Origin: Schmidtea polychroa
Lineage: Eukaryota
Direction: 5' to 3'
Length of the DNA stretch: 64,000 bases
Assembly (NCBI GenBank): GCA_044892525.1
Contig: CM097885.1
Span: 10,480,001-10,544,000, forward strand
Positions 1 to 29,900 of the stretch are shown here, one piece after another. Made by a program: the position numbers and the translations under genes. The notes under the pieces were generated by a model. That model made no database searches and was not told the origin of the DNA. It worked only from the letters and a program-made list of their open reading frames with translations. Numbering within the stretch: position 1 is the stretch's first letter; each line of letters begins with the position of its first letter.

Positions 1-109
1 AAAATAATAATAATAATAATAAAAATAATATATCAACCAAATACATAAAAATGAACTAGACACATAAAACACAAACAATTAACAAATGTAAAGATATAAA
101 ATTTATTCA
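1..109. repeat. Inner end of left terminal inverted repeat
   Basis: Reverse complement matches 13475 onward (TGAATAAATTTTATATCTTTACATTTGTTAATTG...) with one substitution plus a length difference in the (ATT)n tract. Confidence 0.9.
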
Positions 110-450
110 TCCAATATTTGCTTGTAATAAGCTCTTCTTAATTCTGCTAGTAAAATATGAACAACTTCTTTCATCTTATATTCTTGGCAGCATCTACATC
201 TAAACGGACATGGTAATTTCATCGGATCCATACATACTTCACAATCGTCTATGCATTTAAATCTTGATTCTTGTACAGATTCGAAATGTCTTCGTATAAG
301 TTCTTCTATATTGATCCCCGTTAATTGCTTGATTCTATAAGCTAATAATTCCGGAGCACAATATGAAAGTCTGTTCTTTATATTCGGGAACAATTCTTCC
401 ATCTTCGTTAATATAGTCTGGAATATGTAAGCTTGCTTATCGTCATCCAT
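103..450 (-). CDS. Polinton hypothetical protein with Cys cluster (possible Zn-binding)
   Basis: 115-aa ATG ORF containing CIDDCEVC...CPFRCRCC. Its stop codon overlaps an AATAAA inside the TIR. Confidence 0.65.
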   Translation of the reverse strand: MDDDKQAYIFQTILTKMEELFPNIKNRLSYCAPELLAYRIKQLTGINIEELIRRHFESVQESRFKCIDDCEVCMDPMKLPCPFRCRCCQEYKMKEVVHILLAELRRAYYKQILDE

Positions 451-513
451 TTTTGAATTTTTGTTATTGTAGATATTCAGTTAATTTAAACACAATTAAT
501 TAAATTAATTTAA

Positions 514-990
514 TTAACTTAATAAATATTCCAATATTTCTTCATTTGTTGTGATATTTATAGTTAATGATTTAATGAATTTCTGAATTTCTTGAATTTG
601 ATTAAAATAATCAAATGTTTTAATCCCTAATATAACAACTTTCCCACTTGAAAAAACATTTACACATAGGGGGTTATACTTGAGAATACGTAAAGCTGGA
701 AATATTTCAGGCTCATAGTAACTATCGGTTTTCCTTGACAATGCATTTAAATCAATGCATGTACCCATATCTAACGTTAATGTAATTGATTGGATTTGTA
801 AATCTTGAATCTGATATTTGAGATCGCCTTCCTGTAATGGTTTCTTACATCCCATTATCCTACATTTCCCGCTCTTGAAGAATAAAATTGGATATTTTCC
901 ACTTCTGTCCACGACATGTTGAGGTTTTCCTGATGGGAACTTCATTCCATTTACTACACATCTTCCTCTATAATTAATGTTGCTGATCAT
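514..990 (-). CDS. TATA-box-binding protein (TBP)-like protein
   Basis: Two TBP repeats: ILFFKSGKCRIMGCK and YEPEIFPAL...VNVFSSGKVVILGIK, compared with canonical YEPELFPGL...IFVSGKVVLTGAK. First ATG is at 990; the ORF track extends to a TTG at 1014. Confidence 0.85.
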   Translation of the reverse strand: MISNINYRGRCVVNGMKFPSGKPQHVVDRSGKYPILFFKSGKCRIMGCKKPLQEGDLKYQIQDLQIQSITLTLDMGTCIDLNALSRKTDSYYEPEIFPALRILKYNPLCVNVFSSGKVVILGIKTFDYFNQIQEIQKFIKSLTINITTNEEILEYLLS

Positions 991-1040
991 TCTAATTATT
1001 GTAATTATAAACAAATTAAATAAAATAATTTAATTAAAAA

Positions 1041-1664
1041 ATGGAATTAAGAAATGACGCAGTATATCAAATAGTAGGACCTAGTGGAAGCGGGAAAACT
1101 TTATTTGTATGTAATTTATTACAATCAAACATGTTTAAATCTAAATTTAATAAAATATATTGGCATCGAGGTGCAGATGAAGAACATGGATTGACTCAAA
1201 ACAGTTTCTGTAAATTAAAAATGACAATAATTAAAGGATTTGATAAAAATTGGTCATCTAGATTACGTCAAGGTGATGTTATTATTATCGATGATCTGTA
1301 CCAGGAAGCAAATAAAGAAAAAGATTTTAATAATTTATTTACAAAAATCAGTAGACATTGCGGAGTTACAGTTATTTTCATTACACAAAATCTTTTTCAT
1401 CAAGGTGGAAGTCATAGAACACGTAATTTAAATGTCCAATATTTAATTATTTTCAAAAATCCTAGAGATCAAACAATAATAGATTTTCTTGCGAGACAAG
1501 CTTATCCAAATAATAGAAAATTTTTGATTGATTCATTCCAAGATGCAACAAAAATTCCTCATGGATATTTATTTTTTGATTTTACACAACAATGTCCAGA
1601 TGATATGCGTATTAGAACTGATATTTTTAATATAAACGGTGTTACGATTTATAAACAAAACTAA
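1041..1664 (+). CDS. A32/FtsK-like genome packaging ATPase
   Basis: Walker A GPSGSGKT, Walker B IIIDD, and SRH...ITQNLF...RTRNLN...FKNPRD typical of Polinton ATPases. Confidence 0.95.
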   Translation: MELRNDAVYQIVGPSGSGKTLFVCNLLQSNMFKSKFNKIYWHRGADEEHGLTQNSFCKLKMTIIKGFDKNWSSRLRQGDVIIIDDLYQEANKEKDFNNLFTKISRHCGVTVIFITQNLFHQGGSHRTRNLNVQYLIIFKNPRDQTIIDFLARQAYPNNRKFLIDSFQDATKIPHGYLFFDFTQQCPDDMRIRTDIFNINGVTIYKQN

Positions 1665-1683
1665 AAACTAAATAAAATTAATC

Positions 1684-1836
1684 ATGTCATTTAAAAAAGT
1701 AGTTGTTAAAAATCTTCCAAGTGTTTCGAAGAAAATTACCAAGAAAACAAAACGTACAAAGAAAACAAAAAGTGGATCAAAAAGTACAAAAAGTACAAAA
1801 ACTAAGAAAAAAATCAAGAAGTGGATCAAATTATAA
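1684..1836 (+). CDS. Small highly basic protein (putative DNA-condensing core protein)
   Basis: Hand-translated 50-aa ORF MSFKKVVVKNLPSVSKKITKKTKRTKKTKSGSKSTKSTKTKKKIKKWIKL with 21 K/R and no acidic residue. It fills the gap between neighbouring genes and is below the ORF-track cutoff. Confidence 0.7.
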   Translation: MSFKKVVVKNLPSVSKKITKKTKRTKKTKSGSKSTKSTKTKKKIKKWIKL

Positions 1837-1858
1837 ACAATCCGTCGCGTAAATAATA

Positions 1859-2185
1859 ATGAAATTTGAACGGAGCTTACCATATTTTAATGCTTTAATA
1901 AAGGCACCAAATTCGAAACGAATATCAATTTTACAGTCTTTTCCATCATTTGTTATTGATGATTTACTTGAAGTTATTATAAATGTTGTCCGCGGTAATG
2001 TAAATATAACTAAAGCTAAAAGATTAGTATTGCAAAGACATAAAAGATCACTTTTATCTCTAGTTGATACAAAAAATCGTCGTCTAATGAGAAAGATAAT
2101 ATATAAACAAAAAGGAGGGTTCTTGGGTGCACTAATTCCTATAGTCTTATCTGCAATTAGTGCAATCTCATCATTAAGTTCTTAA
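1859..2185 (+). CDS. Polinton virion core protein with QKGG putative adenain site and hydrophobic C-terminal peptide
   Basis: 108-aa ORF with NVVRGNV and a QKGG-FLGALIPIVLSAIS tail, in the structural gene block. Confidence 0.75.
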   Translation: MKFERSLPYFNALIKAPNSKRISILQSFPSFVIDDLLEVIINVVRGNVNITKAKRLVLQRHKRSLLSLVDTKNRRLMRKIIYKQKGGFLGALIPIVLSAISAISSLSS

Positions 2186-2439
2186 TGGGTATCAAGAGTT
2201 CATTACCAAATAAAAATATTGTAGATTTTAATATTTTGACAACTTGTTGTAATAATGAAGGAAACGTATCACAAAACCAACACAAAAGTGGAAAAAATGA
2301 AAACAAAAGTGAAAACAAATGTGAAAACAAAAGTGAAAAAAGTGAAAACAATAGAGAAAAAGTTAAAAACCATATGGACAAACCCAAAAGATCCAGATGG
2401 TTTTGGTGGCGTAGAAAAATTAACAAAACGAGTGAATAA
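2185..2439 (+). CDS. Small protein with N-myristoylation-like start, overlapping the integrase 5' end
   Basis: MGIKSS (MGxxxS), a CC pair and a basic/aromatic RSRWFWWRRK patch. TAATG stop/start overlap with the upstream ORF. Confidence 0.5.
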   Translation: MGIKSSLPNKNIVDFNILTTCCNNEGNVSQNQHKSGKNENKSENKCENKSEKSENNREKVKNHMDKPKRSRWFWWRRKINKTSE

Positions 2440-3403
2440 TTCAAAGAAAGAAACTCAGAAATGGTTATCTAATCAATTAGCATATAGTTTAAATAAACCA
2501 ATGTTGAAACGTTTTCCAACAAGACCATACAAAACAATTGGAAACAATGATGTATGGCAAATGGATTTGATGGAAATGATACCTTATTCAAAAATTAACA
2601 AGGGGTACAAATATATTCTGACTTGTATAGATGTTTTTAATAGATATGCTCGTGCTGTTCCTACAAAAACTAAATCTGCAAATGAAATGGCTGATGCGAT
2701 AAAAGAAATGTTTGCAGATGGTAAACCTATTAATTTACAAACGGATTTAGGTAATTAAATTTAATTAATTAATTTTTAAATATATGATTTAGGTAAAGAA
2801 TTTTATAACAGCAAAGTTAAAGAGGTTATCAAAGGAATAAACCATTACTCGGTATTTTCTCAGTTCAAAGCTGCTCACGTAGAACGATTTAATCGAACTT
2901 TAAGAGAACGCTTGAAAAAATATTTTGTATATCAAGGTAATAAAACTTGGATAAATGTTTTGCCAAAAATTATTTTCAGTTACAATCATTCACCACACAG
3001 AGGATTAAAAGGACAAACACCTGCAGATTTTACTAAAAATCAAACAAAGTCAGAAAAAATCAATAAACCGAAATACAAGGTTGGTGATCATGTAAGAATT
3101 AGTAAAATCAATTCTTCACCATTCATCAAAAACTTTGATAATAATTGGAGTGATGAAGTATATCAAATTTTTAAAATCGATACAAAACAGAATCCTGTCA
3201 TGTATGTGATAGTTGATCATGAAAACAAACCAATCACTGGTAAATTCTATGAACAAGAACTCCAAGTAATTCCAGCTCCTACAATATTTAGAATTCAAAA
3301 GATTTTAAAAACCAAAAAAGATGGTAAATATAAACAATACTATGTTAAATGGCATGGATATGAAACTCCATCTTGGATATCCGAAAATCAATTGATTAAA
3401 TAA
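2255..3403 (+). CDS. Retroviral-like (rve) integrase with C-terminal chromodomain; exons 2255-2750 and 2793-3403
   Basis: DDE residues in WQMDL, QTDLG|KEF and VERFNRTL; chromodomain YYVKWHGY...SW. Removing the 42-nt GT-AG intron 2751-2792 joins two track ORFs into 368 aa. Confidence 0.93.
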
Positions 3404-3408
3404 ATATT

Positions 3409-4434
3409 ATGAAAGATTTTTATATTATTTTACCTTCTAATAGTTGTCCTCTTATTTTCCCCGATAATGAAGCTAGTAAATTTAATGTCGAATTTCAAAA
3501 TCCTATTTACTTGGATGGTGAATGGGAAGTAGCTCTCATGGACTTTACCTTTGTGTATAATACTTTTCCTTATTACAGTAATTCATTGATACAATATGAA
3601 AAAGTAAAGATGGATGAAGAAATTAAATATTTTAGAATAAATAATTCAAATCGAACCTTTGAAGTAATAAATCCTAAAAATACTCCTGAAGTTGACATGT
3701 TCATTGAAAGATATGAGAATTTGGTTGTTGTTTGTCCACATGTTCCATTTAAAATAACGTTTCCAGATTTTGAACATGCTATTAAATTTGGATTAAAATC
3801 AGTATCGATTATTAGTGATAGTGATCATTTGCGAATTAAATTACCAAAATTTACAGAAGATAAAACAATTGATCAATTTGGTATAATTATAAGTGTTGTT
3901 GAAAAAACAAAATTTGAACATTATTTCGAAGATGAACTATACATCAATACTTTATCTGAAATACATGGTCAGTTAATGACAATTAATCCGTCTCCCTTTA
4001 AAGATTTAAAAATACAAAATAATGAATTGGTTAAAATAAGTCTTGCTGATAACATTTCATCAATAACCTTTGATAAAAATTTAACAAAAACATTGGGATT
4101 AAAGAAACAAACATTTACAGAGAAAGAAATTATTGGAACAAAAATTCCAAAGTTATTTAATCATCATCAACAAATGTTTATTTACTCAAATATTATCGAA
4201 CCATTGACTGTTGGAGATGTAAGAGTTCCGTTATTGAAATCTATTTGGATAAAAAAATATGAACAAGGAGAAATTGTGCAACTAGAAATGAAGAATCCAA
4301 TGTATCTACCAATTTCTAATTCTTCTATAAACAACATTGAAATCAATATACGAGATGATAGTGGAAAATTAATAAAATTTAGTAGAGATACAAAAACACA
4401 CTTGACATTACATTTTCGTAAAATAAATGATTAA
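3409..4434 (+). CDS. Minor capsid (penton) protein, paralog 1
   Basis: FYIILPSNS...N..SKF...PIYLDGEWEVAL N-terminus and FIYSNIIE...VGD...PLL...Y.P...IEINIRDDSG...LHFR C-terminus typical of Polinton pentons. Confidence 0.88.
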   Translation: MKDFYIILPSNSCPLIFPDNEASKFNVEFQNPIYLDGEWEVALMDFTFVYNTFPYYSNSLIQYEKVKMDEEIKYFRINNSNRTFEVINPKNTPEVDMFIERYENLVVVCPHVPFKITFPDFEHAIKFGLKSVSIISDSDHLRIKLPKFTEDKTIDQFGIIISVVEKTKFEHYFEDELYINTLSEIHGQLMTINPSPFKDLKIQNNELVKISLADNISSITFDKNLTKTLGLKKQTFTEKEIIGTKIPKLFNHHQQMFIYSNIIEPLTVGDVRVPLLKSIWIKKYEQGEIVQLEMKNPMYLPISNSSINNIEINIRDDSGKLIKFSRDTKTHLTLHFRKIND

Positions 4435-5443
4435 AAAAGATTTTTATGTGAATTTACCTTCTAATAGTTGTCCTCAGACTCATCCAAATAATGAAGCTGG
4501 TAAATTTAATGTCGAATTTCAAAATCCTATTTACTTGGATGGTGAATGGGAAGTAGCTCTCATGGACTTTACCTTTGTGTATAATTATTTTCCTTTTTAC
4601 AGTAATTCAAATGTCAAATATAGTAAAAGTGTATTACATACAAGTTATGAATACTTTTACTTTAACCAAGAAAAAAATGAATATACAATCAGTCACGACT
4701 CTCCATTTTATTTAATATATATTGATGGAAATACATTGAACATTAATTGTAAATATTTTCCTTTTAAAGTAGAATTCGATAGTATTAAAGAAGCGCAAAA
4801 ATTGGGATTTTCAGAAAAAGAAATAACTTTTAAAAAAACCTTGAACCAAATCACTATTCCTCCAAATAATCGAAAAATAAAGTTTGATACAATTCGATTA
4901 ACTATACAATATTATTACGATGTCGAGTATACAGATACATTCGAAGAAAATATCATTACAGATCTTTCACAAATAAATGATCAACTATCACTCTTTTATC
5001 CTCGTCCATTTAAATCTGTTGATATTCAAAAAGGAAAAATCGTTAAAATTGTAATGGATGATGATGTCAGTAAAGTTCAATTTAGTAAATTTTTAGCCAA
5101 TAGTTTAGGATTATTAGAAGAAGCATATACTGACAAACTTATTATTGGTTTTAAAGAACCTGAAGTATTACAACGCAATCAACAATTGATGATCTATACA
5201 AATATTATCGAACCAATTATTGTTGGTGATACATTGGTCCCTCTTTTGAAATGTATTTGGGTGGAAAAACATAAAAAAGATGATTTAGTACAAATAATTG
5301 AAAAGAATCCAATGTACTTACCTGTATCGTCTTCATATATAAACAATATAGAAATCAATATACGAGATGATAGTGGAAAATATATATTTGGAAAAGAAGA
5401 TAAAACATACTTGACATTACATTTTCGTAAAATAAATGAGTAA
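4427..5443 (+). CDS. Minor capsid (penton) protein, paralog 2
   Basis: Same N- and C-terminal penton motifs as 3409-4434, with a divergent centre. Confidence 0.88.
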   Translation: MIKKDFYVNLPSNSCPQTHPNNEAGKFNVEFQNPIYLDGEWEVALMDFTFVYNYFPFYSNSNVKYSKSVLHTSYEYFYFNQEKNEYTISHDSPFYLIYIDGNTLNINCKYFPFKVEFDSIKEAQKLGFSEKEITFKKTLNQITIPPNNRKIKFDTIRLTIQYYYDVEYTDTFEENIITDLSQINDQLSLFYPRPFKSVDIQKGKIVKIVMDDDVSKVQFSKFLANSLGLLEEAYTDKLIIGFKEPEVLQRNQQLMIYTNIIEPIIVGDTLVPLLKCIWVEKHKKDDLVQIIEKNPMYLPVSSSYINNIEINIRDDSGKYIFGKEDKTYLTLHFRKINE

Positions 5444-5834
5444 TCCTGACATAATACATTTTTATAGTAGTAACCAATCGGGTGGTGATTTACCATATTT
5501 TGTTGGTAAACAATATGGAACCGGTTGGTTGAAGACAATAGGTAGATTTGCACTCCCAATTCTTAGACGAATAGGAAATTTTGGTATGAAAACAGCTAAT
5601 GACGTAATAAATAACAATGCAAATATCTTGCCTGCTTTAAAATCAAATGCAATTTCTGAAATTAAAGAATCATTACCAGCTGTGATGCAACATTTACCTG
5701 AAGTAATTAATAAAGTATCCGATGTATTTAAAAATGATAAAGAACAAAAAGGCGGAATACTTAAACGCCGAAAAATTATGAAGAAACATATAAACAAAAG
5801 AATGAAAGGATATGGTACCATCTTTGAAAAATGA
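5436..5834 (+). CDS. Polinton core / putative membrane-lytic protein with several protease sites
   Basis: QSGG, QYGTG, QKGG and MKGYG motifs plus an amphipathic WLKTIGRFALPILRRIG helix. Lies directly upstream of the major capsid gene. Confidence 0.75.
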   Translation: MSNPDIIHFYSSNQSGGDLPYFVGKQYGTGWLKTIGRFALPILRRIGNFGMKTANDVINNNANILPALKSNAISEIKESLPAVMQHLPEVINKVSDVFKNDKEQKGGILKRRKIMKKHINKRMKGYGTIFEK

Positions 5835-7054
5835 TTAGTGCTAAATCAGAATTATGTCTTTTTGATAGACCTTCTCCCCAAGCAGTGATTGAACATGGAG
5901 CATTTGAAGATGTATACCCAAGAAATTCAATTACAGATGCCGGTTCTTCTTCGATTCAATTTTACATAAATGGATCGCAGACTGAATATTTAGATTTGAA
6001 TGATACTTTGTTATATATTCAATTGAAAGTTGTTAATAATTTAGGTGAGAATTTAGGCGAATCAGAAGTAATTCCAAATAATTTCTTCTTCCAAACCCTT
6101 TTTAAAGATGTTGAATTAATTTTTAATTCAATCAAAGTTGAAGGATCAAATGATAGATTTGCCCACAAAGCATTAATTGAAACACTTATAAATTATGACG
6201 GAGATACTAAACGAACATCTTTAGGTGGAATGGGGTATACTAACAAAGATCTTACGAGAAAAACATGGATTGAAAAATCAAAATCCTTTTCTTTATGTTC
6301 CCCACTTCAATTTGATTTCTTTGATCAACCTAAATATTTACTACCAGGTGTTAGTGTTCAAATTAAATTAACAAGATCAAATCCAACACTTAGTTTAACT
6401 TGTGCGAAAATTGAACCGAAAATTTTATTATTAGACGCAAAATTAATGGTTAGAAGAGTTCGTGTTGAACCATCGGTTTTGGCAGGACATCAAATTGGTC
6501 TGTCTACCAAAAATGCAATTTATCCTTTAAGAAGCAAAGAAGTTGTTGATTTCTCATTACCTATTGGTTCTTCCTCTTTTTATAAAGAACAAATATTTGG
6601 AGATAGACGATTACCTAATTTTATACTTGTTGCATTTCAATCTAGTAAAAGATTTAGTGGATCGTTTTCAGAATCATTTTCTTTATTTGATCACTTTAAT
6701 GTCAAGTCCATAACTTTAAGTAAAGGAAGTGATTATCGCGAAAAATATAGTCAAGATTTTGAGAATGATGATTATAGTACAAGTTATATGCAATCGATTA
6801 TTAGAAATATGGGTTATCTAAATAAAAATATGAATTGTGGTATCACCATGTCTGATTTTAAGAGCAAGTATCCATTCTTTACATTCGTATTGGCACCAGA
6901 TTTTGATCTTCATCAAAGTCAGTTACCACAAAGTGGAAATTTGCGATTAGATATTAAATTCGCATCTTCACTTACTGAAGCTGTTTCTGTAATCGTATAT
7001 GGAGTTTTTGAAAAAGAAATTCAAATTACATCTACTCGTACTGTTTTGGTATAA
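5831..7054 (+). CDS. Major capsid protein (double jelly-roll, hexon-like)
   Basis: 407 aa with SELCLF...Q, YLDLNDT, PNNFFFQTLF, FFDQPKYLLPGV, KNAIYP and GNLRLDIKF motifs of Polinton capsid proteins. Confidence 0.9.
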   Translation: MISAKSELCLFDRPSPQAVIEHGAFEDVYPRNSITDAGSSSIQFYINGSQTEYLDLNDTLLYIQLKVVNNLGENLGESEVIPNNFFFQTLFKDVELIFNSIKVEGSNDRFAHKALIETLINYDGDTKRTSLGGMGYTNKDLTRKTWIEKSKSFSLCSPLQFDFFDQPKYLLPGVSVQIKLTRSNPTLSLTCAKIEPKILLLDAKLMVRRVRVEPSVLAGHQIGLSTKNAIYPLRSKEVVDFSLPIGSSSFYKEQIFGDRRLPNFILVAFQSSKRFSGSFSESFSLFDHFNVKSITLSKGSDYREKYSQDFENDDYSTSYMQSIIRNMGYLNKNMNCGITMSDFKSKYPFFTFVLAPDFDLHQSQLPQSGNLRLDIKFASSLTEAVSVIVYGVFEKEIQITSTRTVLV

Positions 7055-7088
7055 TATAAACCAAATATCGAAAATCAATTAATCAAAT

Positions 7089-7467
7089 ATGAAGTAAGAA
7101 TTAATTTAAATTATTTAATTATTATTAATTTAGTTCTATTCAGATACATGTTATCGGAAGAAAATTACTAGGAAAAGAATTTCTAGGTGTTTTCCCATTA
7201 GACAAAATACCTTATTTAGATGTCAACAAAGCAATAATTGTAAATACTCAATCTGCTAATCTGAATGGTGAACATTGGCTTGCAGTATACGTGAAACCAG
7301 ACAAAATATATGCATTTGATCCAATGGGATTCTATTATCCACCTATATTAATCAATAAACTACAATCAATGTCAATGCCAATTGAATACAATCGAATACG
7401 TTACCAAAACCCTATAACAAAAACATGTGGACAACATTGTTTGGCTTGGTTAAAGTCAATGAAATAA
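7089..7467 (+). CDS. Adenain-like cysteine maturation protease; exons 7089-7093 and 7134-7467
   Basis: Not in the ORF track. ATG AA|40-nt GT-AG intron|T TCT gives 112 aa: MNSIQI...FLGVFPLD...IVNTQSANLNGEHWLA...FDPMG...YQNPITKTCGQHC, with catalytic H, D, Q and C present. Confidence 0.92.
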
Positions 7468-7604
7468 ATTTTTATAATAAAAAGTTGTTTTCAATAAATT
7501 TTAGCTGATTATTTCAATAAATTTTTAGTTGATTATTAATTCAATATAATTGATTATTAAAATTTAAATTTTAGTTGATTATTAAACTAAATCTTTAATT
7601 AAGT

Positions 7605-7826
7605 TAATTATTATGTAAGGTATTAAATCCTTTAATTATTATGTAAGTTATTTAATCCTTTAATTATTACGCATGGTATCAAATTTAATCCTTTAATTAT
7701 TACGTAATGTATTAAGTAGAAGAAGAAGTATATAAATGATTTGTTTTTAAAATATGGTCATAATTTGCTAGTACCAAGGATTGTAAGAATTTTATTTTTT
7801 AATTATTAAAATTTAATTATTTTTAG
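7605..7826 (+). promoter_or_regulatory. Putative Pol II promoter: repeated TTA(T/C)GTAA-type sites, TATA box and 5'UTR intron
   Basis: Four ~30-bp repeats ending TTATGTAA, TTATGTAA, TTACGCAT and TTACGTAA. TATATAAA at 7729-7736. A 44-nt GTAAG...TTTTAG segment at 7783-7826 just before ATG 7840. Confidence 0.55.
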
Positions 7827-7839
7827 ATAAAAATCAAAA

Positions 7840-8113
7840 ATGAATAATAATGCAACAATGAAAAATGTTAGAAATGCAACAATGAAAAATGCTAATAATG
7901 CAACAATGAAAAATGTTAAAAATGAAACAATGAAAAATGTTAAAAATGCAACAATGAAAAAAGCTAATAATGCAACAATGAAAAATGTTAAAAATGCAAC
8001 AATGAAAAAAGCTAATAATGAAACAATGAAAAATGTTAAAAATGAAACAATGAAAAAAGCTAATAATGCAACAATGAAAAATGTTAAAAATGCAACAATG
8101 AAAAATGACAAAT
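7840..8113 (+). CDS. Repeat-encoded exon (11 x 8-aa N[AE]TMK[NK]xx), probable first coding exon of PolB
   Basis: 24-bp tandem repeats in an open frame from ATG 7840. A GTAAGT donor at 8114 (phase 1) is phase-compatible with the TTTTTAG acceptor at 9359 in the PolB ORF. Confidence 0.55.
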
Positions 8114-8134
8114 GTAAGTATTTTTATCAATTTT

Positions 8135-8470
8135 TAAATAATATTTTATAATGAAATTATTAATATTTTTAAAAATGATTATTAATATTTTTAATAAAAT
8201 TTTATCTTAAGAGTAAAAATAGTGGGAAATCCCTCGTAAAAAATTTTTTAATAATATTTTATAATGAAATTATTAATATTTTTAAAAATGATTATTAATA
8301 TTTTTAATAAAATTTTATCTTAAGAGTAAAAATAAGGGTAAATCCCTCGTAAAAATTTTTTTTATATAATGATGAAATTATTAACATTTTTAAATAATAT
8401 TTTATAATGAAATTATTATTAATGATATTTTTTAATGATATTTATTTTGAAATAAGGGGAAATCCCTCGC
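8135..8470. repeat. ~113-120-bp AT-rich tandem repeat x3, each ending in a GGGAAATCCC-like site
   Basis: GGGAAATCCC 8224-8233, GGGTAAATCCC 8336-8346, GGGAAATCCC 8457-8466. Confidence 0.8.
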
Positions 8471-8490
8471 AAATTTTTTTTATAATGATA

Positions 8491-8697
8491 ATAATGTAGT
8501 CTACAGTGAGCACGTAGCTACATAATAGTCTGCAGTGAGCATGCAGTACTCTTTAATATAATAATGTAGTCTACAGTGAGCACGTAGCTACATAATAGTC
8601 TGCAGTGAGCATGCAGTACTCTTTAATATAATAATGTAGTCTACAGTGAGCACGTAGCTACATAATAGTCTGCAGTGAGCATGCAGTACTCTTTAAT
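8491..8697. repeat. 70-bp perfect tandem repeat x3
   Basis: Unit ATAATGTAGTCTACAGTGAGCACGTAGCTACATAATAGTCTGCAGTGAGCATGCAGTACTCTTTAATATA starts at 8491, 8561 and 8631. Confidence 0.95.
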
Positions 8698-8774
8698 AAT
8701 AATAATCTGACCCTTATTAAATACTTATTAACTTTAAAATTTTTTCAACAACATTTAAAATAACACTTAAATAT

Positions 8775-9212
8775 TTATTCAAAAACATTTGTAATTTTCC
8801 AAATTGGTTTAATTATAACTCCATTTATCTTGACTCCTTGAATAAGTATTCGCACTTTTGATTTTTTATCTTCGTCTAATTTACACCCTTTTTCACAATT
8901 GATAAATGTAAATTTTTCATTAAAAATCATTTCTTTATTAATTAATTTAAGAATTTCTCCAAGATTTTTTCTATCTTCTTCCCCAATATCTCCAATTTGA
9001 ATATTGAATTGACATGTTTTTAAATTAACTGGTTCCTATAACAAATTAATATTAAATAATTAAATAAAAAAAAAAATTACCTTGAACGAATAAGTAATAG
9101 GATATTTCAAATAGTACATATTATATTGAAGGAATTGAATAGGAGGTTTACATACCATACCTATAACTGATGTACTATTTTCTTCTAATAGGATACTATT
9201 TATAGTAGACAT
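8775..9212 (-). CDS. Hidden two-exon 130-aa protein (exons 9212-9081 and 9035-8775); possibly OB-fold ssDNA-binding
   Basis: ATG at 9212, 44 codons, then AAG|GTAAT...TTATAG|GAA 45-nt intron with an in-frame stop, then 86 codons ending GAA TAA inside AATAAA. The function is only a guess from the C-terminal KVRILIQGVKINGVIIKPIWKITNV. Confidence 0.75.
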
Positions 9213-9343
9213 TTTTTGTTAAATTTATTTCATTAAATTATCATTTATAGCAAATAATTAATTTTGATTGGATGCATACATGCAAAATTATAAGAAAATT
9301 TTAATAGTTTTATTTTTATCAAATGTTTTAGCCAAATTTTTAA

Positions 9344-12300
9344 ATGTATATATTTTTAGGTATACTTTACCCAAATTATTGTTCGTCGAAAGAACATAAT
9401 AATTGCCATTCTATAATGGAGAATTATTATTCTAAAAAATACTATAATAAAACTTTTTTTATATGCCCCATATGTAAGATTAGCGAGCCCTTAACATATA
9501 GCGTTTTTTATAATAAGCATAAACAACATTTAGATAGGTTCAATTCTAAAAAAGATGTTATTTTTAAACGTCCTTCAACTATTGAAATAAATACTACTAA
9601 TAAAAAAATTAAATTAAATACATTTGTTGAATCCCAGGTCGGATTAGTTGATGAATCCAATGATGGATTGTCTTTTGTTGAATCCAATGATGGATTGTCT
9701 TTTGCTGAATCCAATGATGGATTGTCTTTTGCTGAATCCAATGATGGATTGCCTTTTGTTGAATCCCAGGTCGGATTAGTTGATGAATCCTATAATGAAT
9801 TTGATAATCTTTCACTCGACTCTTGGGATGTAGGCGAACCCAATAATGAATTTGATAATCTTTCACTCGACTCTTGGGATGTAGGCGAACCCAATAATGA
9901 ATTTGATAATCTTTCACTCGACTCTTGGGATGTAGGCGAACCCTATAATGAATTTGATAATCTTTCACTCGACTCTTCGACTACTAATGTACAAATAGGA
10001 GGTAATGTACCCATAGTACAAAAAGATTTAAGGGGTACACATCAAATTTTAAGTCTAAATACAAGTAACTTGAATATAAAGGAAATAATATTTCCAGAAC
10101 AATTAATTATAAAATTACGAGATATTATTAACGAATTAGGCTCCGTCAAAATTCAATTCGGAATAACAATCGAATTTGAAAAAGACGGGGAAATAAAGGT
10201 TAATAATATTTCGAATTACGCAAAACCTTTAACTGCCTCATTTTTTGACGAAGGCATTAGGGAACTAAACGAGAAAATAAGTAATATCACAGAGTTAGGA
10301 AGTAGCTGGATCATAAAAAAAATAACTGAAATTCACTTCACCATAACAAAGATAAGTAGGCTAAGTAGATTAAGTGGTAAGAGTTTCATTGAACTACCTA
10401 CTTGTCTAAAAAATAAATATTGCTTAATTAATGTAAAAAACACTGACGATTCGTGTTTTTTATATAGCATTTTAGCTATTTTAAAATATGATGAGGTTAG
10501 TAGTTATGCTAGAAATAGGACATCTAGTTATAATTTATCTGAGTTAATATATAATCCATTAGACTTACCAATGAAATTAAAAGATATTAGAAAATTCGAG
10601 GCCAAAAATCCTGGTTTAATAATTAATGTTTTTTCTTATGACAATAACAATCAATTAATAGACAATTACGTTTTAAAACACCCCCATTTAGACATTATAC
10701 ATCGTTCCAAAGTTTTAAATGGAACAGTAATTAATTTACTTTTATTAAATAAAGGGAACAATTTCCATTACATTGCTATAAGCAATTTAAATAGGTTACT
10801 GAATTGCCACATAAACACTAGTTGTCCTACACGCATACAATCAATATGGTGTCATCGTTGTTTGAATGGTTTTAAAAATAGAAACGCACTAGAAAAGCAT
10901 GAAATATTATGCAAACGCAATCAATTAGGAACTACTCTTTATACTTTCCCTGAAAATAAATTCTTACAGTTTACTGACTGGTCGAAAACAGTAACTCCTC
11001 CTTTCGTAGTTTATGCCGATTTTGAGGCTATTTTACCTTGTGATAATGTTCATTTTCAGCGACACATGCCAATATCTGCTGGTCTTTTACTAGTAAATAA
11101 CTTTGACGGATCTAAATCCTATCAACAGTTTATAGGTTTAGATTGCGTCGAGAGTTTTTTAAGTGCTATAGAGGATATAGCATTAAATAAGGTTCTTCCT
11201 TTTTATTATAAAATGGGTAGGAAACCAATGATTAAATTAACTAAAAATGAGCAACAACAATTCATTAATTCAACGGTTTGTTATCTTTGTTTGAAATCTA
11301 TCATGGATCCTGTTAGAGATCACGATCATTTTACGGGCAAATACTTGGGTGCAGCTTGTAGCACATGTAACGTAAATAGAAAAATAAATAAAATTTTGCC
11401 TATCGTATTTCACAACTTGAAGGGATACGATATGCATCATATACTTAAATATGGATTAAATAAATTTAAAAATTGGAATTTAGGGTGCATCCCAATAACT
11501 ACGGAAAAATTTATATCTTTGATTGCTCATTTAGGCAAAATTAGCATAAGATTCATTGATTCATATCAATTTGTCAATGATTCTTTGGCTAAAGCAGTCA
11601 AAACTTTGAATTCTTTGCCTTTTACTAATTCTGCTTTTTCTGGCACCATAGTAAGTGAAAAAGGAATCTTCCCTTATAATTTCGCCACTTCTTTAGATGT
11701 TCTACAAACTACGTATGAATTACCACCAATCTGGGAGGGTGTCACTGAGCTTGAGTATGAAAAAGCTCAGGAGATTTGGGTAGAATCTAATTGCAGAACT
11801 TTACTAGATTATATGATGATCTACCTAAAACTTGATTGTTTTCTTTTGGCTGATTTCTTTCATCAGTTTAGGTTGAAATCAATTGCTCACAATAGATTAG
11901 AGCCTTTGAATTATTTCGGAATTCCAGGCATGTCTTGGTCTTCTGCATTAATGTCTTTAAATGAACCAATTGAACTCATAACTGAAAACGAAATGTTTAG
12001 CTTTTATGAGGGTGGAATAAGAGGCGGTCTTACTTTTGTGAATAAGCATTACGTAAAAACCGACGAGAACACCGAGTTACTTTATATAGATATTAATAAT
12101 CTTTATGGGTGGGCTTTAAGTCAATCATTACCTTGTGGCGAATTTTGTTGGGTTCTTGATGGATTTGATAAAATAATGGATGAATGTAGGAATTTAAATC
12201 TTGAATCTTTGTCTTATGGATACACACTTGAAGTTGATCTTGTAATTCCTTCTGAGCTTCATGATAAGTTGGATGATTTCCCTGTAGCTGCTGAAAAAAT

Positions 12301-13468
12301 GAAACCTGCTGGGTCTAAGGTTGAAAAATTATTATTAACTCATCTTCCAAAATCAAATTATGTTATTCATTGGAGATTATTAAAATTATATTTAGAACTT
12401 GGTGTTAAAGTAACACGTGTAAATAGAGGTGTAAGATTTAAGCAATCACCAATTTTTAAAAAATATATAGATACAAATACCGAATTAAGATCAAAAAGCG
12501 TAAATAACTTAGATAAAAATTATTATAAATTGCTAAATAACAGTTTATACGGCAAAACAGTTGAAAATTTAAAGAGAAGAATGAATCTTCGTCTTTGTAC
12601 AACTGCCGGTAAATTAGTTAAATATTCGTCAAAACCGACTTTTAAAAAATCTATTAAAATAGCAGATAATTTAATTGCAACACTATTGAATTCAGATTCT
12701 ATATGTTTAGATAGACCGAGTTACATTGGTCAATCTGTACTTGATCTATCTAAACTTAGAATGTATGAATTACAATATAAGGATCTGGAATCATTTCGCA
12801 ATGAGTTTAATTGTAAAATTAATATCGTTGCTGGTGATACAGATTCTTTTTTCCTCGAAGTCATTAACTGCAAACTTGAGGTTCTTTTACCTGCAATGAT
12901 TCGAGATAATTTATTAGATACTTCCAATTACAATAGTTGTCATTCCTTATATAGTAAGAACCTTGATTCAGTCATTGGAAAGTTCAAAGACGAGAATAAA
13001 GGTCTTAAATATAATGAGTGGGTTTTTCTTAGACCTAAATGTTATAGCTTGTTGGGTGATGAGGAAACAAAAAAGGCTAAAGGTGTAACATTGAAAGGTA
13101 GTGACATAAAACATCAGTCATACCTGGATTGTTATAACACTAACCAGATTTTTTCGGTTCCTCAGACTAAAATAACAAGCAAAAATCATCAAATTTTTAC
13201 AATTAAAAACACAAAAATAGCACTAACAAACAAAGATGACAAAAGGGTTTGGGTGGGGAAAAATGCTAGTCTTGCATATGGGCATGTAAGATTAAGTGAA
13301 TTAAATATTGGAGAAAATGTTGGAGAAATTGTTGCAGAAAATGTTTCAGAAAATGATGGAGAAGATGTTTCAGAAAATGATGGGGAAAATGATGGAGAAG
13401 ATGAGGAAGAATTTAATGAAGAAGATGACATCGATATCGATGACGTTATTTTGTCCGATGAGGACTAA
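9344..13468 (+). CDS. Protein-primed family B DNA polymerase (pPolB)
   Basis: ExoI YADFEA, EndoVII-like RDHDHFTG..GAACSTCN, ExoII HNLKGYD, KGIFPY, motif A DINNLYG, motif B KLLNNSLYGK, motif C DTDS. The frame is uninterrupted. Confidence 0.97.
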   Translation: MYIFLGILYPNYCSSKEHNNCHSIMENYYSKKYYNKTFFICPICKISEPLTYSVFYNKHKQHLDRFNSKKDVIFKRPSTIEINTTNKKIKLNTFVESQVGLVDESNDGLSFVESNDGLSFAESNDGLSFAESNDGLPFVESQVGLVDESYNEFDNLSLDSWDVGEPNNEFDNLSLDSWDVGEPNNEFDNLSLDSWDVGEPYNEFDNLSLDSSTTNVQIGGNVPIVQKDLRGTHQILSLNTSNLNIKEIIFPEQLIIKLRDIINELGSVKIQFGITIEFEKDGEIKVNNISNYAKPLTASFFDEGIRELNEKISNITELGSSWIIKKITEIHFTITKISRLSRLSGKSFIELPTCLKNKYCLINVKNTDDSCFLYSILAILKYDEVSSYARNRTSSYNLSELIYNPLDLPMKLKDIRKFEAKNPGLIINVFSYDNNNQLIDNYVLKHPHLDIIHRSKVLNGTVINLLLLNKGNNFHYIAISNLNRLLNCHINTSCPTRIQSIWCHRCLNGFKNRNALEKHEILCKRNQLGTTLYTFPENKFLQFTDWSKTVTPPFVVYADFEAILPCDNVHFQRHMPISAGLLLVNNFDGSKSYQQFIGLDCVESFLSAIEDIALNKVLPFYYKMGRKPMIKLTKNEQQQFINSTVCYLCLKSIMDPVRDHDHFTGKYLGAACSTCNVNRKINKILPIVFHNLKGYDMHHILKYGLNKFKNWNLGCIPITTEKFISLIAHLGKISIRFIDSYQFVNDSLAKAVKTLNSLPFTNSAFSGTIVSEKGIFPYNFATSLDVLQTTYELPPIWEGVTELEYEKAQEIWVESNCRTLLDYMMIYLKLDCFLLADFFHQFRLKSIAHNRLEPLNYFGIPGMSWSSALMSLNEPIELITENEMFSFYEGGIRGGLTFVNKHYVKTDENTELLYIDINNLYGWALSQSLPCGEFCWVLDGFDKIMDECRNLNLESLSYGYTLEVDLVIPSELHDKLDDFPVAAEKMKPAGSKVEKLLLTHLPKSNYVIHWRLLKLYLELGVKVTRVNRGVRFKQSPIFKKYIDTNTELRSKSVNNLDKNYYKLLNNSLYGKTVENLKRRMNLRLCTTAGKLVKYSSKPTFKKSIKIADNLIATLLNSDSICLDRPSYIGQSVLDLSKLRMYELQYKDLESFRNEFNCKINIVAGDTDSFFLEVINCKLEVLLPAMIRDNLLDTSNYNSCHSLYSKNLDSVIGKFKDENKGLKYNEWVFLRPKCYSLLGDEETKKAKGVTLKGSDIKHQSYLDCYNTNQIFSVPQTKITSKNHQIFTIKNTKIALTNKDDKRVWVGKNASLAYGHVRLSELNIGENVGEIVAENVSENDGEDVSENDGENDGEDEEEFNEEDDIDIDDVILSDED

Positions 13469-13474
13469 TTTTAT

Positions 13475-13554
13475 TGAATAAATTTTATATCTTTACATTT
13501 GTTAATTGTTTGTGTTTTATGTGTCTAGTTCATTTTTATGTATTTGGTCGATAT

Positions 13555-13585
<31 letters not shown>

Positions 13586-15206
13586 TTATTATTTTTATTA
13601 TTATTTCGTTAAAATTTTCATTTGACTTTGAAAAATATTTCATAAAAATTTTCATTAAAAGTTATCTTAAAAATTTCCATCTAAAATTATCATTGAAAAA
13701 TATTTCATAAAAATTTCCATTAAAAATTACTTAAAAAAATATTTCATAAAAATTTCCATTAAAAATTACTTAAAAAAATATTTCATAAAAATTTCCATTA
13801 AAAAATTTCAATTCTCAAACACCTTCAACTTTTTGTTAATAAATTTTAAAATCTTACTTTAATTTACTTATTACATTACTTTAATTTACTTATTTAAAAA
13901 TTATTACTTTAATTTACTTATTTAAAAATTATTACTTATTTAAAATTTTTTACCATTGATTACTTAATTTTAAATTTAGACCATAATTTACTTTAATTTT
14001 AATTTTTAGAACCATTATTTACTTTAATTGAAAAATTTGGACCATTATTTACTTTAATTTAAAAATTTGGACCATAATTTAAAAATTTGGACCATAATTT
14101 ACTTTAATTTAAAAATTTGGACCATTTAATTTTAATTTTTAGAACCATTATTTACTTTAATTGAAAAATTTGGACCATAATTTACTTTAATTTAATTTTT
14201 TAGAACCATTATTTACTTTAATTGAAAAATTTGGACCATAATTTACTTTAATTTAATTTTTTAGAACCATTATTTACTGTAATTTAATTTTTAGGACCTT
14301 AATTTACTTTAATTTAATTTTTAGGACCTTAATTTACTTTAATTGAAAAATTTGAGCCATAATTTACTGTAATTTAATTTTTAGGACCATTATTTACTTT
14401 AATTTAAAAATTTGGACCATTATTTACTTTAATTGAATAATTTACCACGTTTTTTAGTGTAGACCACCTTTTTCTCAGGACCAAGGAGACTCACCTCACT
14501 ATAGTCTGAAAAATCCTTGGCTTTTTTAGTGTAGACCAGCTTTTTGTATTGAAAATATCCTGAGACCTTAAATTACCATGCTTTTTAGTGTAGACCAGCT
14601 TTTTGTATTGAAAATATCCCGAGACCTTAAATTACCACGTTTTTTAGTGTAGAACACCTATTTCTCAGGACCAAGGAGACTCACCTCACTATAGCGTGAT
14701 AAATCCTTGGCTTTTTTATTGATAGTAGGATTTTTGTATAGAAAAAAATTTTTTGTATTGAAAATCCCAGGACCATCGAGACCCCCTCACTATATTCTGA
14801 AAATTCCATGCTTTTTTAGTGAGACCGCCTTTTTGTATTGAAAAAATTTTATTTGTATTGAAAATCCCAGGACCATTGTTTTTGTATAGAAAAATTTTTT
14901 TTTTTGTATTGAAAATCCCAGGACCATCGAGACCCCCTCACTATAGTCTGAAAATTCCATGCTTTTTTAGTGGTAGTCGGATTTTTGTATAGAAAAATTT
15001 TTTTTGTATTGAAAATCCCAGGACCATCGTTTTTGTATAGAAAAAATTTTTTTGTATTGAAAATCCCAGGACCATCGAGACCCCCTCACTATAGTGTGAA
15101 AAATTGCGTAATCAAAAGTTGCAGCAAAAAAATTACGGCAGCAGAACCCCCCCCCCCCCCCCCCCGGGGGGGTCATTGCTGCCGTAGGCTACTATCTACC
15201 TACTAT
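13475..15206. repeat. Right terminal inverted repeat (~1.7 kb) made of nested tandem repeats
   Basis: Inner boundary is defined by the match to 1-109. Contains ~35-bp GGACCAT(A/T)ATTTACTTTAATT repeats (13975-14440), TTGTATTGAAAATCCCAGGACCAT and CCTCACTATAG blocks (14450-15100), and a terminal C/G hairpin. Confidence 0.85.
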
Positions 15207-16644: not shown

Positions 16645-16938
16645 TCAAAGCTTAAGCTTTCTTGCTTTATTGTTTACAAAAGTAAGGATTATTTCATCGA
16701 AGATTATTTGACTGGTAAGTGGACGTTCAATGGAAAGAAGAGCTAGAGATGATATGCGTTGTTGGCATGATGTCGATCTTAAATAGTTTTTAATAATTTT
16801 TAGTTTGCTGAAACTCCTTTCGGCGGTAGCTACTGTAGTTGGCATTGCGAGAAATGTTTTCAGAGATATTTCGATAATCGGGTACGGTTTTTTCAATTCC
16901 CATGTAGCTAAAACATTTAAAATATTTAAATAAAACAT
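16645..16938 (-). pseudogene. hAT transposase C-terminal dimerisation-domain fragment
   Basis: YP...LKTFLAMPTTVATAERSFSKLKIIKNYLRST...R...LALLSIE. Confidence 0.85.
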
Positions 16939-17109
16939 GTCATCGGGTATTTTGTTTTGTAACAGTTCAATTATTTGGTGTTTAAAGCATTAAAAGGCAC
17001 CCGTTTGTTGCTGGTGAGCAAACATTCACCAATTTTCATTCTGAAATTGAATGGAGACATTTGTTTCTTTTTAGAGATACCATTCAGGGAAGAGTCTCGT
17101 CTGTATAAC

Positions 17110-22137: not shown

Positions 22138-22767
22138 ATGCATGGCAATAATCTGCCCCAAGAACCGCAATTACTGAACAATGTCTGCTGGTTTTGCAAG
22201 AGCTCAGTGAAAACGACTCTGGAGGATTTTCATTCAAATCAAATCCAGGAAGAGGCGATTTTAAATTCTCCGACGTTCAAGAAGTTATTAAAAAATGAAC
22301 TGCTTCATTTCTGTAAGAACACAACAATCCGCGGAGTTCCGAGAATAGTTAACACAACCAACAAATCCAGTAAGATTCTATGGATAGGTTTTTTTATTTT
22401 TCTCTGTGCTGGTTTGACAATCTGTCTGACATTTCTCATCCGACAATTTATTGAATATAGTGTCATTCATCCACCGAGAGTTCTCCAAAACAGTCCATCT
22501 CCATTTCCGTCATTTACTGTCTGCAATCATCGGCCATTGAGTTACAATGTCAGCAGTTTCTTTCATCAAAGAAACATGAGAAATCCTCGAGAATTTGCAA
22601 TAGCGGCCAACTACGTATCGAAAAACTATTTATTTGACCGAGGAGATAAAGGTCACTATAGTTTAATAACTTCAAGCTTTTCTTTAAGCGGTTACTTGGA
22701 AAGCATTCCATTGGAATATCACAAAATGCTTGGACACGACTATTTTGATTTTGTCATTGACTGTTTG
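22138..22767 (+). CDS. Host DEG/ENaC (amiloride-sensitive sodium channel family) gene, first coding exon
   Basis: FCKNTTIRGVPRI pre-TM1 motif, TM1 ILWIGFFIFLCAGL..., and FPSFTVCN. GTAAGT donor at 22768. Later exons were not identified in the window. Confidence 0.85.
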
Positions 22768-22857
22768 GTAAGTAGATTATTATTTATAATTAATTTTAGA
22801 AACAATATTTATAATATCATTAGTTTATTTGAATTTCACCATAACAAATTGTATAAA

Positions 22858-26905: not shown

Positions 26906-29900
26906 AAGTTATGGGGTAGAGAATTATTATATGTTTGCAATATTCTGTGTTTGCCTTTACAGGAAGTTGTCAATAAGGAGCGATAATTTGACACACACAC
27001 ATTCTATATACACATACCTTGTTTAACATGGGTGTATATACTCCTAGTTTATCCGACAAAATATTCTGTCCCCCTAAGGGTACTGCTAGCAAGGGTACTA
27101 CTCACATTCAACATATCGCAAGGGTATATTAATTAGGGTTAGTAAATAAAACTTATGACACATACTATTTAAACGATAAAAATCAAGACAAGAGAGGACA
27201 AGGCAAAGTTTATGCATTTAGTATTGCCAGGCCTAATGAGCAGTGACCAAATATCTGTGCCTGAAAGACACGGTGGATATTTGTTCGCGTCCACAAGGGT
27301 CGTCTGTGCCTCCCCCAAGTGGGGTCAGAAGAACCTGGGCATTATAGCTTTCCGTACGGAACATTACGCCTAGCATGGGTAGTCAACTACCAGCACATTC
27401 GAAACGTATAATTTCAAAATACATGCGTCATTGGCACTATAACCAAATTAATTAATGTTTTCACTAACACAAATATATATTTACAGAGGCCTCCCACTAG
27501 TTGGATTACAACCGCCCACCACGACGATCAGCTTGTAAATATATATTAATTAAGGGATAAAGAGGACCCACCCAACCCTATTATATTTAATTTACAAATT
27601 TTTCTCGCTCTTCTGCTGGTATTCTATCTCAAAATTATCATCTCCATCGGGCCATTTGATAGTGATTTCATGGAATACATCTTGCAAATTGGACATATTT
27701 CTTAGTTTCTGATGCGGTGTCAACTATCATTGCTAAAATTTATATTGATTTAAAAGCAATTAACTTACATTATCTAGCATTTTATCGTCACAGGCTTGAT
27801 AAATTAGGCAACTGTTATTTGTGGTATACTTTTTCAATGTCATTTCCCACCATAAAACACAGATACCTAAATATAATATATATATATTTTAAAGAATTAA
27901 TTCATGTCTTACATTAATAATAATATTCTTCAGGTAGTACTTTACAATATCTAATTGATAAAACATCGGTTTTTTCCCATTTTTCTTGACATTCGTTGAA
28001 AGTTTACATAATTTAAGTAAACATTCATGTTGAAGGACACCCCCAATCAGCTAATTCATTTAAGAAATCCCGAACATAGCAATGTTTCACCATTTTGTCT
28101 GGTTCATTTTCTTCTATAATTCATGTTTTAATAAGAAATTTCTAAATCCAGAACATAAGTCATTTAGTGTTTCACCATTTTGTTCATCTTCTTCATAATT
28201 ATATAATTCATTTTCTTCATTACTAAGTAAAATAATTAAAATATTTTAGTAAATTCTTTATTTACTTACTTTATGGATACTAAAACGAAAGAAATAACGT
28301 TATATCAGAATTATATTTAAATAATTTAAATTTAGTTATTTAAACATATTTAAACAATTTAGTTATTTAAGCATATTTAAACATTAACATTATTATATAG
28401 TATAATTTTATATAATTTTATATAATATTATAATATTATAATATTATGTATTGTAAATTTAATATATCCTTAATTTAATTTTTTAAATTCAAAAATTTAT
28501 AATGAAGATTCTTTGAATTAAAAAATATTCTGTTAGTATTTCCAGGCAGAAAACAACGAATTCAATAATTAAAATCTTAATTTTCATGTTGTTAGGGTTG
28601 TGGCCAGAAGTTAATCGCCATCTAATCGTTTGTTCTCAATTTCGCTCATTTTTGTTCAAAACATTCAGGTGAGTTGTTATCTGGAAAGTTTCTTTGAGCT
28701 CAGTTTTGTTAAAACACTCACGGTATTCTTGAGGGACGTGACACTGGAAATAAATTAACAATGGGTGGTCATACATACATGTTGTTGGTTTGAACTGTTG
28801 ATTTATTTTAGAAATATGTATATTAAAAACATTTAAGGTATCATTCAGTAAAATAATATAGTATTTTTGAGTATTTTTAGTTAATTTATAAATAACAGTA
28901 TTTTGATATATCAATAAAGACCATATACTCCTAGTTTATCCGACAAAATATTCTGTCCCCCTATGGGTATTGCTAGCAAGGGTACTGGTCACACTCAACA
29001 AGTCGCAATATTAATCATTTAGAAATTCTTAGGTAAGATAATCAGAAATTTGTGAATATTTTAAATGTAACTTTACACTTATGTCGAGCGACTAATTTAT
29101 TGTTTAACTTTGTAGTCATTTAAAGCAAAAGGTAATTTATTCATCTAATGTTCGTTACAATAGATAATAATATGAGAAAAACATGGTCATTATTCATTGA
29201 TAATTTTAAATTCTTTATCATTTGGAGTAAATTTGTTTGAGGCAAAAATATTTGAAGGAGTCATAATAGAAATATGGTTATCATTTAACCAAATAAGGTG
29301 CTTATTAGTTAAAAATATATATTTATATAGGGTTACAATTCTTTTCTAATTTAATTAGATGATCATTAGACGTAATATATCTTTGCGAGAAATTTAAGAT
29401 GTTTGAGTAACCAAAACATTGATATTTTGGGTCATCAATTTATGAATAGTGCTTAATTTTCTCATTTTTAGTGATTTAAAATAATATTTAGCAAAGGTAA
29501 TTTGGCAAAATATCACTTATCCATCCGATAACAATATTCCTTCAATAGATATTCAACCGATTTAATTTCTAATTAAAATCATAAAATTCCTTCAATAAAG
29601 ATCAATTTTCTTTAGCCGTTGTCGATTTCCAACTTTTAAGTCAATATTTCTCAAGTTTTGTCACTGATGTCCCCACAATGAATAAAATAACTTCTTAAGT
29701 AAATAATTTAAAGCAATAACCTTTGATATCAATCCCAATTAATTCTAAAGATTTCAAATATTTCATTGTGAAAACCAAGTAAATTGATCATTAACCCTAA
29801 ACGACTTAATAAAACAGTGGATAATTAATAAAAAACTGGTTCTAAAACATAAATCTAAATTACTGTGCAATAACATTCATCACAACCTAATAAACCTCTA

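Follow-up and report, generated by a model that had tools for sequence, protein, structure and literature searches.

How the genes of a virus-like element can be expressed when several of their reading frames are broken by short AT-rich segments is the question raised by a window of 64,000 nucleotides from Schmidtea polychroa (GenBank assembly GCA_044892525.1, contig CM097885.1, positions 10,480,001 to 10,544,000 of the forward strand). Positions 1 to about 15,200 of this window are a Maverick/Polinton element. A preliminary description of the sequence had listed four GT-AG segments of 40-45 nt, lying in the integrase gene, the protease gene, a 5' untranslated region (UTR) and a minus-strand gene, and all four were present at those coordinates. 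We consider it likely, with a probability of roughly 0.8, that the segments in the integrase, the protease and the minus-strand gene, which resembles genes for single-stranded-DNA-binding proteins (SSB-like), are true U2-type introns that the host spliceosome would remove by intron definition, and that this removal would be obligatory for expression. The strongest new point is the intron at the start codon of the protease, whose position is conserved among related elements.

The protease gene is laid out as follows.

7089..7093, plus strand: protease coding exon 1, the ATG and two bases, the same five-base layout as in related loci L018, L019, L022, L025, L028 and L029
7094..7133, plus strand: predicted protease intron, 40 nt, phase 2, its position kept across the clade
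7134..7467, plus strand: protease exon 2, adenain-type cysteine protease with His/Asp/Gln/Cys motifs (Peptidase_C5, E-value 1.4e-5)

The protease profile also matched adenovirus protease structures (E 1e-4). The start codon lies five bases before the donor, and the frame reads Met-Lys-stop when unspliced. The entire catalytic domain is in exon 2, whose first in-frame Met is residue 64, past the catalytic His 47. Comparison of intron positions in related Mavericks, suggested earlier as a check, placed an intron at the identical site and phase in six of the 27 protease-bearing loci (L018, L019, L022, L025, L028 and L029). Since L028 and L029 are near-identical, these represent five distinct elements, 52-58% identical. 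Each of the six has an ATG, two bases, a GTAAG donor, 37-47 nt and an AG, and the intron interiors resemble one another no more than unrelated AT-rich introns do. The intron is missing from the other 21 loci, 20 of which have an in-frame Met just upstream; the remaining one (L009) has an open frame with no Met in view. Without splicing, six of the seven genes (the window included) have no in-frame Met ahead of the catalytic His; the exception, L022, could start at residue 7 of exon 2, which is a Met. For a tree of the N-terminal part of the integrase, 42 rows were chosen so as to take in both the nearest loci and proteins and some distant ones. One 30-row clade (support 96/94) held the window together with the five carriers that the tree included, and L044, L046 and L054, with direct protease starts, fell outside it. 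The simplest reading of this distribution would be one old gain, retained since.

Two other ways of starting the protease were considered and rejected. Spliced leaders of flatworms can carry an AUG, but inspection showed that such an AUG would not be in frame if joined at the protease acceptor. A donor allowing a fusion of capsid and protease was in frame in L022 only and was dropped as unconserved. The proteases of L028 and L029 have a second short intron of 48-49 nt near the 3' end, judged by reading frame only. Downstream of the protease, relatives carry a conserved ORF (L022 7836-8309, L025 5997-6242, L044 5843-6352) where the window has an ORF of tandem repeats; we take the relatives' ORF to be exonuclease-like from a D-x-Q/E motif.

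The integrase gene gave the second line of evidence.

2255..2750, plus strand: integrase exon 1, with the first two catalytic Asp motifs (rve, PF00665, E 1.3e-8; extent as in protein P0121)
2751..2792, plus strand: predicted integrase intron, 42 nt, phase 1, with an in-frame stop, a gap against intronless relatives
2793..3403, plus strand: integrase exon 2, with the catalytic Glu motif and a chromodomain (rve_3 and Chromo, both under the cut-off)

Exon 2 was 53-66% identical to the best dozen full-length relatives. In tblastn with six intronless integrases (54-66% identical over the whole protein), a single frame ran across the site. The alignment gap was exactly 14 codons and fell at the second catalytic Asp motif, QTDL-X-KEF, which bears out the earlier statement that removing the segment restores this motif; the integrase motifs are conserved in the alignment of relatives. 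If the intron is retained, the integrase stops ahead of the catalytic Glu. Four of the 91 related loci fall short of this site, and it was uninterrupted in 86 of the 87 listed, L078 ending there. From 49 proteins found with exon 1, we examined 29 together with two cluster members. P0121 (98%), P0122 and P0170 (about 80%) and P0171 (of a 74% cluster) end a few AT-rich codons past the motif; P0128 and P0151 end at the motif itself, where their contigs may simply end. In the integrase tree, one clade (97/93) comprises the window, P0121, P0122 and P0170, which suggests that the intron may be shared by a subclade. In one more protein, P0124, whose N-terminal part is as in P0171, a chromodomain-like C-terminus follows directly on the intron site; a deletion could explain this, as could splicing to an acceptor far away.

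An 11-nt direct repeat (2744-2754 and 2786-2796) embraces the boundaries of the integrase intron and resembles an acceptor followed by a donor. In the intronless loci L014-L016 the 11-mer occurs as a single, uninterrupted copy. This arrangement matches what duplication or staggered-break repair at a proto-splice site would leave (PMC3443670, PMC4202315). The splice consensus alone accounts for part of the repeat, and repeats of at least 5 nt also flank about a quarter of old Drosophila introns (PMC3443670). The repeat would equally suit insertion of introners or other transposons after integration, for which Maverick-like proviruses of dinoflagellates set a precedent (PMC11957031). We regard that origin as very unlikely for this element, since the four segments share no family likeness (pairwise 0.68-0.78, equal to the AT background), the protease and UTR segments have no boundary repeat, the SSB-like intron has one of 3 nt only, and the protease intron appears older than the divergence of the elements that carry it. 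A multi-copy intron family, which defines introners, was not found within the window and six relatives.

The third gene lies on the minus strand.

9081..9212, minus strand: SSB-like gene, exon 1, 44 codons, start at 9212 (profile positions 25-59, E 6e-10)
9036..9080, minus strand: predicted SSB-like intron, 45 nt, phase 0, with an in-frame stop; the exons abut on the profile
8775..9035, minus strand: SSB-like gene, exon 2 (profile positions 60-154, E 4e-22)

Four homologous frames were used to collect 104 proteins, from which a new profile was made. The two exons met on it without gap or overlap, and L030 is contiguous at the intron site. The homolog in L019 has a 43-nt intron at another site, and those in L018 and L030 have none. 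A structural model of the L030 protein (pLDDT 96) resembled an OB fold of the T7 gp2.5/Enc34 type. The SSBs T7 gp2.5, Enc34 and African swine fever virus (ASFV) CP312R were similar to it in fold (Z 6.4-7.2, root-mean-square deviation 2.7-3.5 over 97-118 residues), and uncharacterised giant-virus proteins matched it as well (E 1.6e-5, TM 0.72). The family differs from those SSBs in being only about 120-130 aa long, with 7-11% identity. The top four VIA matches and the top five Foldseek matches in the PDB were of gp2.5 type, at Z below 8 and E above 0.05. A Pfam scan of the alignment found no common family, with seven single-member matches among 79. From the resemblance in fold, the gene probably encodes an SSB, an assignment to be treated as a lead.

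All four segments have 7% G+C, a GTAA donor and a TAG acceptor. With regard to U2-type introns, donor and acceptor stand in consensus context, the only branch-like words are weak ones (TTAAT), and the exons abut on intronless homologs in the integrase, the protease and the SSB-like gene; for the UTR segment this comparison does not apply. Because the count of such patterns is weak by itself, the case for introns is made by homology, which supports reading three segments, those of the integrase, protease and SSB-like genes, as real introns. An open-frame filter passed 26 of 132 donors, yet it also passes candidates within long ORFs and was not counted as proof.

The fourth segment lies upstream of the repeat ORF.

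7729..7736, plus strand: TATA-like box upstream of the repeat ORF, read from sequence only
7783..7826, plus strand: candidate 5'UTR intron, 44 nt, non-coding, named from pattern and position only
7840..8151, plus strand: ORF of 24-nt tandem repeats, K/N/A/M-rich, with a GTAAGT donor at 8114

We lean towards a 5'UTR intron here: the segment sits between the TATA-like box at 7729 and the ATG at 7840, it shares nine donor bases with the protease intron, and an indel within it is tolerated among copies. It is somewhat less probable, though a serious contender, that it is an AT-rich leader or that its 3' end alone serves as a trans-splice acceptor. The segment has no coding constraint and no homolog, about two such patterns per element are expected by chance, and trans-splicing does occur in flatworms (PMC6530080).

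The perfect GTAAGT donor at 8114 (phase 1) and an AG acceptor at 9359, near the polymerase start, would join in frame. The repeat ORF could be a 5' exon of the polymerase, separated from the rest by a 1.2-kb intron in which the tandem arrays and the antisense SSB-like gene lie; such a fit of frames occurs one time in three by chance. In L019, the 5' region of the polymerase gene (12562-12909 on the minus strand) contains three short introns of 45, 53 and 49 nt, judged from their compatible frames. L012 and L030 have further short frame-joining intron candidates, judged by reading frame only.

Several observations weigh against the reading of the three segments as spliced introns. The pattern itself is near its chance level: four such donors occur in 1-13500, compared with means of 1.5-2.1 in local shuffles, and 59, 38 and 19 of 300 local shuffles reach four. 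In the surrounding host DNA the same pattern was found 15 times in 48.8 kb. In the integrase tree, the sister rows P0123, P0134 and P0135 read through the site and stand between two groups that stop there, P0171 being one step further out, while the introns of P0122, P0170 and P0171 are deduced from protein ends; the searches for relatives gave no near-identical integrase that reads through. The intron may accordingly have had one gain and a loss or two gains, or the read-through records may be cDNA.

The contigs of sequencing runs are a further point on that side. A search of sequencing runs listed no RNA run that contains the sequence. Runs X1, X2, X3 and X5 (the last DNA-like) were aligned to the element as contigs at 85% likeness. 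No spliced junction at these sites was present among 15 of 369 joint rows, almost every one of them from X5; the integrase junction lies within a stretch skipped as repeat in this alignment. A contig of X1, a run that is RNA by guess only and whose longest record is 19 kb, spans 8657-9071 and runs unspliced through the SSB-like acceptor, 36 nt beyond it. In X2, a run with poly(A) loose ends, one contig enters the SSB-like intron by 13 nt, below the bar of 31 nt. In favour of introns, among the 12 genomic-copy rows listed, four with non-triplet or mixed indels fell inside two introns: a 1-nt insertion at 7819 in the UTR segment, and deletions of 1, 3 and 5 nt at 9066 in the SSB-like intron. Two single-base deletions, however, also fell in the early polymerase frame (9353 and 9454). 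Splicing of the introns is what we infer from the gene structures. The poly(A) loose ends of X2 lie at 2341, in the 5' part of the integrase, and at 4784, within the second of the minor-capsid-like genes, and may mark where upstream transcripts end.

Whether the segments are accidents in a dead copy depends on the state of the element, whose other features are given here.

3..109, strand not applicable: left terminal inverted repeat, inner end (pairs with 13475-13581, 97%)
103..450, minus strand: small ORF, function unassigned (no Pfam or NCBIfam match, none at E<=1e-3 in the 91 loci)
514..990, minus strand: TATA-binding-protein (TBP)-like gene (PF00352, E 5e-16; NCBIfam TBP models under the cut-off)
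1041..1664, plus strand: packaging ATPase, A32-like (PF04665, E 6.6e-7; 69-75% identity to L012-L030)
1859..2185, plus strand: small basic protein with an adenovirus pX/mu-like motif (PF05829, E 2e-6)
3409..5443, plus strand: two paralogous ORFs (3409-4434 and 4427-5443), probably minor capsid, their position kept in relatives
5831..7054, plus strand: double jelly-roll major capsid protein (model pLDDT 65; Foldseek matches)
9344..13468, plus strand: protein-primed family B polymerase frame, 1374 codons (45-49% to the L018 and L019 polymerases)
13475..15204, outer end approximate, strand not applicable: right terminal inverted repeat and tandem arrays, from repeat pairing

The inverted repeats pair over 107 nt (3-109 with 13475-13581) at 97%, so that the complete internal region lies within the window; the left element end is outside it, and the 6-bp target-site duplication typical of Mavericks is not in view. 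The capsid model matched an iridovirus capsid in Foldseek (E 1e-14) and the major capsid proteins (MCP) of Sputnik and mavirus (2e-12 to 6e-12). The polymerase frame was 31-49% identical in tblastn to the polymerase frames of integrase-linked loci; a Pfam scan of it gave no PolB match. We take the ORFs at 3409-4434 and 4427-5443 to be minor capsid genes from their position; close to their starts, some 90 nt are nearly identical between the two, and relatives have one or two copies. The element combines a polymerase, an rve integrase, a packaging ATPase, an adenain-type protease, a double jelly-roll capsid and long inverted repeats, and it is a Maverick by every feature testable here. Intronless core genes, a descriptive trait in PMC8097293 that stands outside the definition, are not found, the integrase and protease being split. 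Homologs of the TBP-like gene occur in L012, L013, L017-L019, L030 and L044; the clade of the element shares this gene, and a figure legend in PMC8502044 also labels a TBP for adinto-like viruses whose hosts are not animals. In L018, an intronless ORF (225-722, minus strand) lies near the left part of the element and is presumably ubiquitin-conjugating-enzyme-like.

The element is coding-intact and not decayed, as the preliminary description held: its internal region lies between inverted repeats of 97% and, the introns aside, every core frame is open. In run X5, 37,357 contigs match the element and 12,907 of those are at least 99% alike, numbers that fit a multi-copy family. That the segments are AT-rich insertions in a dead copy, with GT-AG ends by chance, could draw on the near-chance pattern, on the contigs without spliced RNA, on the direct-repeat footprint of insertion at the integrase segment, and on vertebrate Mavericks, in which 'introns' called by genewise mark degraded copies (PMC8097293). 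It is nevertheless most improbable, given that the position and phase of the protease intron recur in five diverged elements with open frames, that the other frames are intact and that so many contigs are nearly identical.

A further reading, which builds on the preliminary description and is compatible with real introns, is that the host or the element regulates splicing by retention: integrase and protease would be produced at separate stages, with Met-Lys-stop as the off state. The gene layout would permit it, as retention would leave a dipeptide protease and an integrase short of its third catalytic residue. Unspliced protease RNA would give a two-residue product in seven of seven genes, the protease intron has been retained over about 45% protein divergence, and two runs, RNA by guess, contain SSB-like contigs that are unspliced. 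A phase-2 GTAAG donor, however, yields the stop automatically, and these contigs could derive from DNA or from antisense transcripts. The introns also differ in age and distribution, and since none of the five other elements with the protease intron has the integrase intron, a paired switch between integration and maturation is not a trait of the clade. We think such control unlikely, and favour constitutive splicing as the default.

According to this favoured reading, a TBP-bearing Maverick clade living in animals with micro-introns would have gained introns piecemeal and inherited them with the element. Introns would accumulate because the element copies as DNA and never passes through reverse transcription, which could purge them. 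An old, clade-wide intron would be that of the protease, kept because it helps expression or because, so near the start, a clean loss is difficult. The integrase intron would be younger and would have arisen at a ready-made acceptor/donor motif duplicated around AT-rich filler, by staggered-break repair or local duplication; SSB-like and polymerase introns would vary between elements. Splicing would be obligatory because the unspliced protease is Met-Lys-stop and the unspliced integrase stops before the catalytic Glu. A bolder version, which we offer as speculation with the odds against it, is that the clade is a spliceosome-dependent virus lineage in which the protease start-codon intron has been a maturation on/off switch since the clade's origin. 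Micro-intron gain at proto-splice sites would then be ongoing, in parallel at the integrase motif among others, and the lineage would be tied to hosts that splice introns of 37-47 nt.

Adenoviruses depend on nuclear splicing. A position-conserved intron would mean that Mavericks of this kind depend on it as well and pass introns on through long stretches of evolution. With a single small replicon combining introns of differing age, and relatives showing the empty site, intron gain can be put to a direct test, and the Met-Lys-stop layout offers a simple readout for splicing control of capsid maturation. The earlier expectation that ORF-only annotation would miss the protease is supported: with ORFs alone, the protease would be missed or truncated and the integrase split, and the truncated integrases P0121, P0122, P0170 and P0171 stand in the protein collection. 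Surveys that score elements as intact only with open frames would file a micro-intron clade as decayed or protease-less.

The surrounding DNA contains a single host gene in the window, a DEG/ENaC sodium-channel exon at 22138-22768 (nine of nine matches from flatworms, 39-42%); no further sodium-channel exons or short host introns were found in the window. Micro-introns peak at 37 nt in flukes and occur in other flatworms (PMC6530080), and Schmidtea short introns peak at 45-85 nt (PMC13594981); by analogy, the 'host-style' character given to the introns earlier is plausible. In Schmidtea, Polintons become de-repressed when smedwi-2 is knocked down (PMC8532177). A fragment at 16645-16989 (minus strand), which we take to resemble the C-terminus of a hAT transposase, adjoins the element. 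Large near-perfect palindromic duplications, with arms of up to 2466 nt at 100%, lie in host DNA at 26995-35904 and 52969-59782 and are perhaps an assembly artefact or another element.

In a literature search that covered sources other than Repbase, Kapitonov and Jurka 2006, subscription papers and supplements, we found no description of conserved spliceosomal introns in core genes of animal Mavericks, nor was there one in the available portions of PMC10748475, PMC8502044, PMC6431247, PMC5718144, PMC12220804 and PMC11296320. IMG/VR scans with the integrase exon, a capsid alignment and a protease alignment gave no confirmed relative, and one with a broad integrase alignment gave 11 distant loci, all intronless. 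Intact vertebrate Mavericks are described as intronless (Barreat and Katzourakis 2021, PMC8097293), and the Maverick of Caenorhabditis (C. plicata) has intronless core genes, with introns in cargo genes only (Widen et al., 10.1101/2022.07.12.499685). Like the present element, both are bounded by inverted repeats and carry a protein-primed family B polymerase, an rve integrase, a packaging ATPase, an adenain-type protease and a double jelly-roll capsid, whereas here three core or replication genes appear to be split and TBP-like and SSB-like genes are added. The Maverick-Polinton-like proviruses of dinoflagellates (Gozashti and Corbett-Detig, PMC11957031) also hold spliceosomal-type introns inside the element. 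Those introners, however, are multi-copy transposons that mostly arrived after integration; the introns here form no sequence family, and one of them is conserved in position. New introns of Daphnia (PMC4202315) are similarly short and AT-rich, with a direct repeat at an AG/GT proto-splice site and possible parallel gain. The introns described here differ from these in lying inside a mobile virus-like element.

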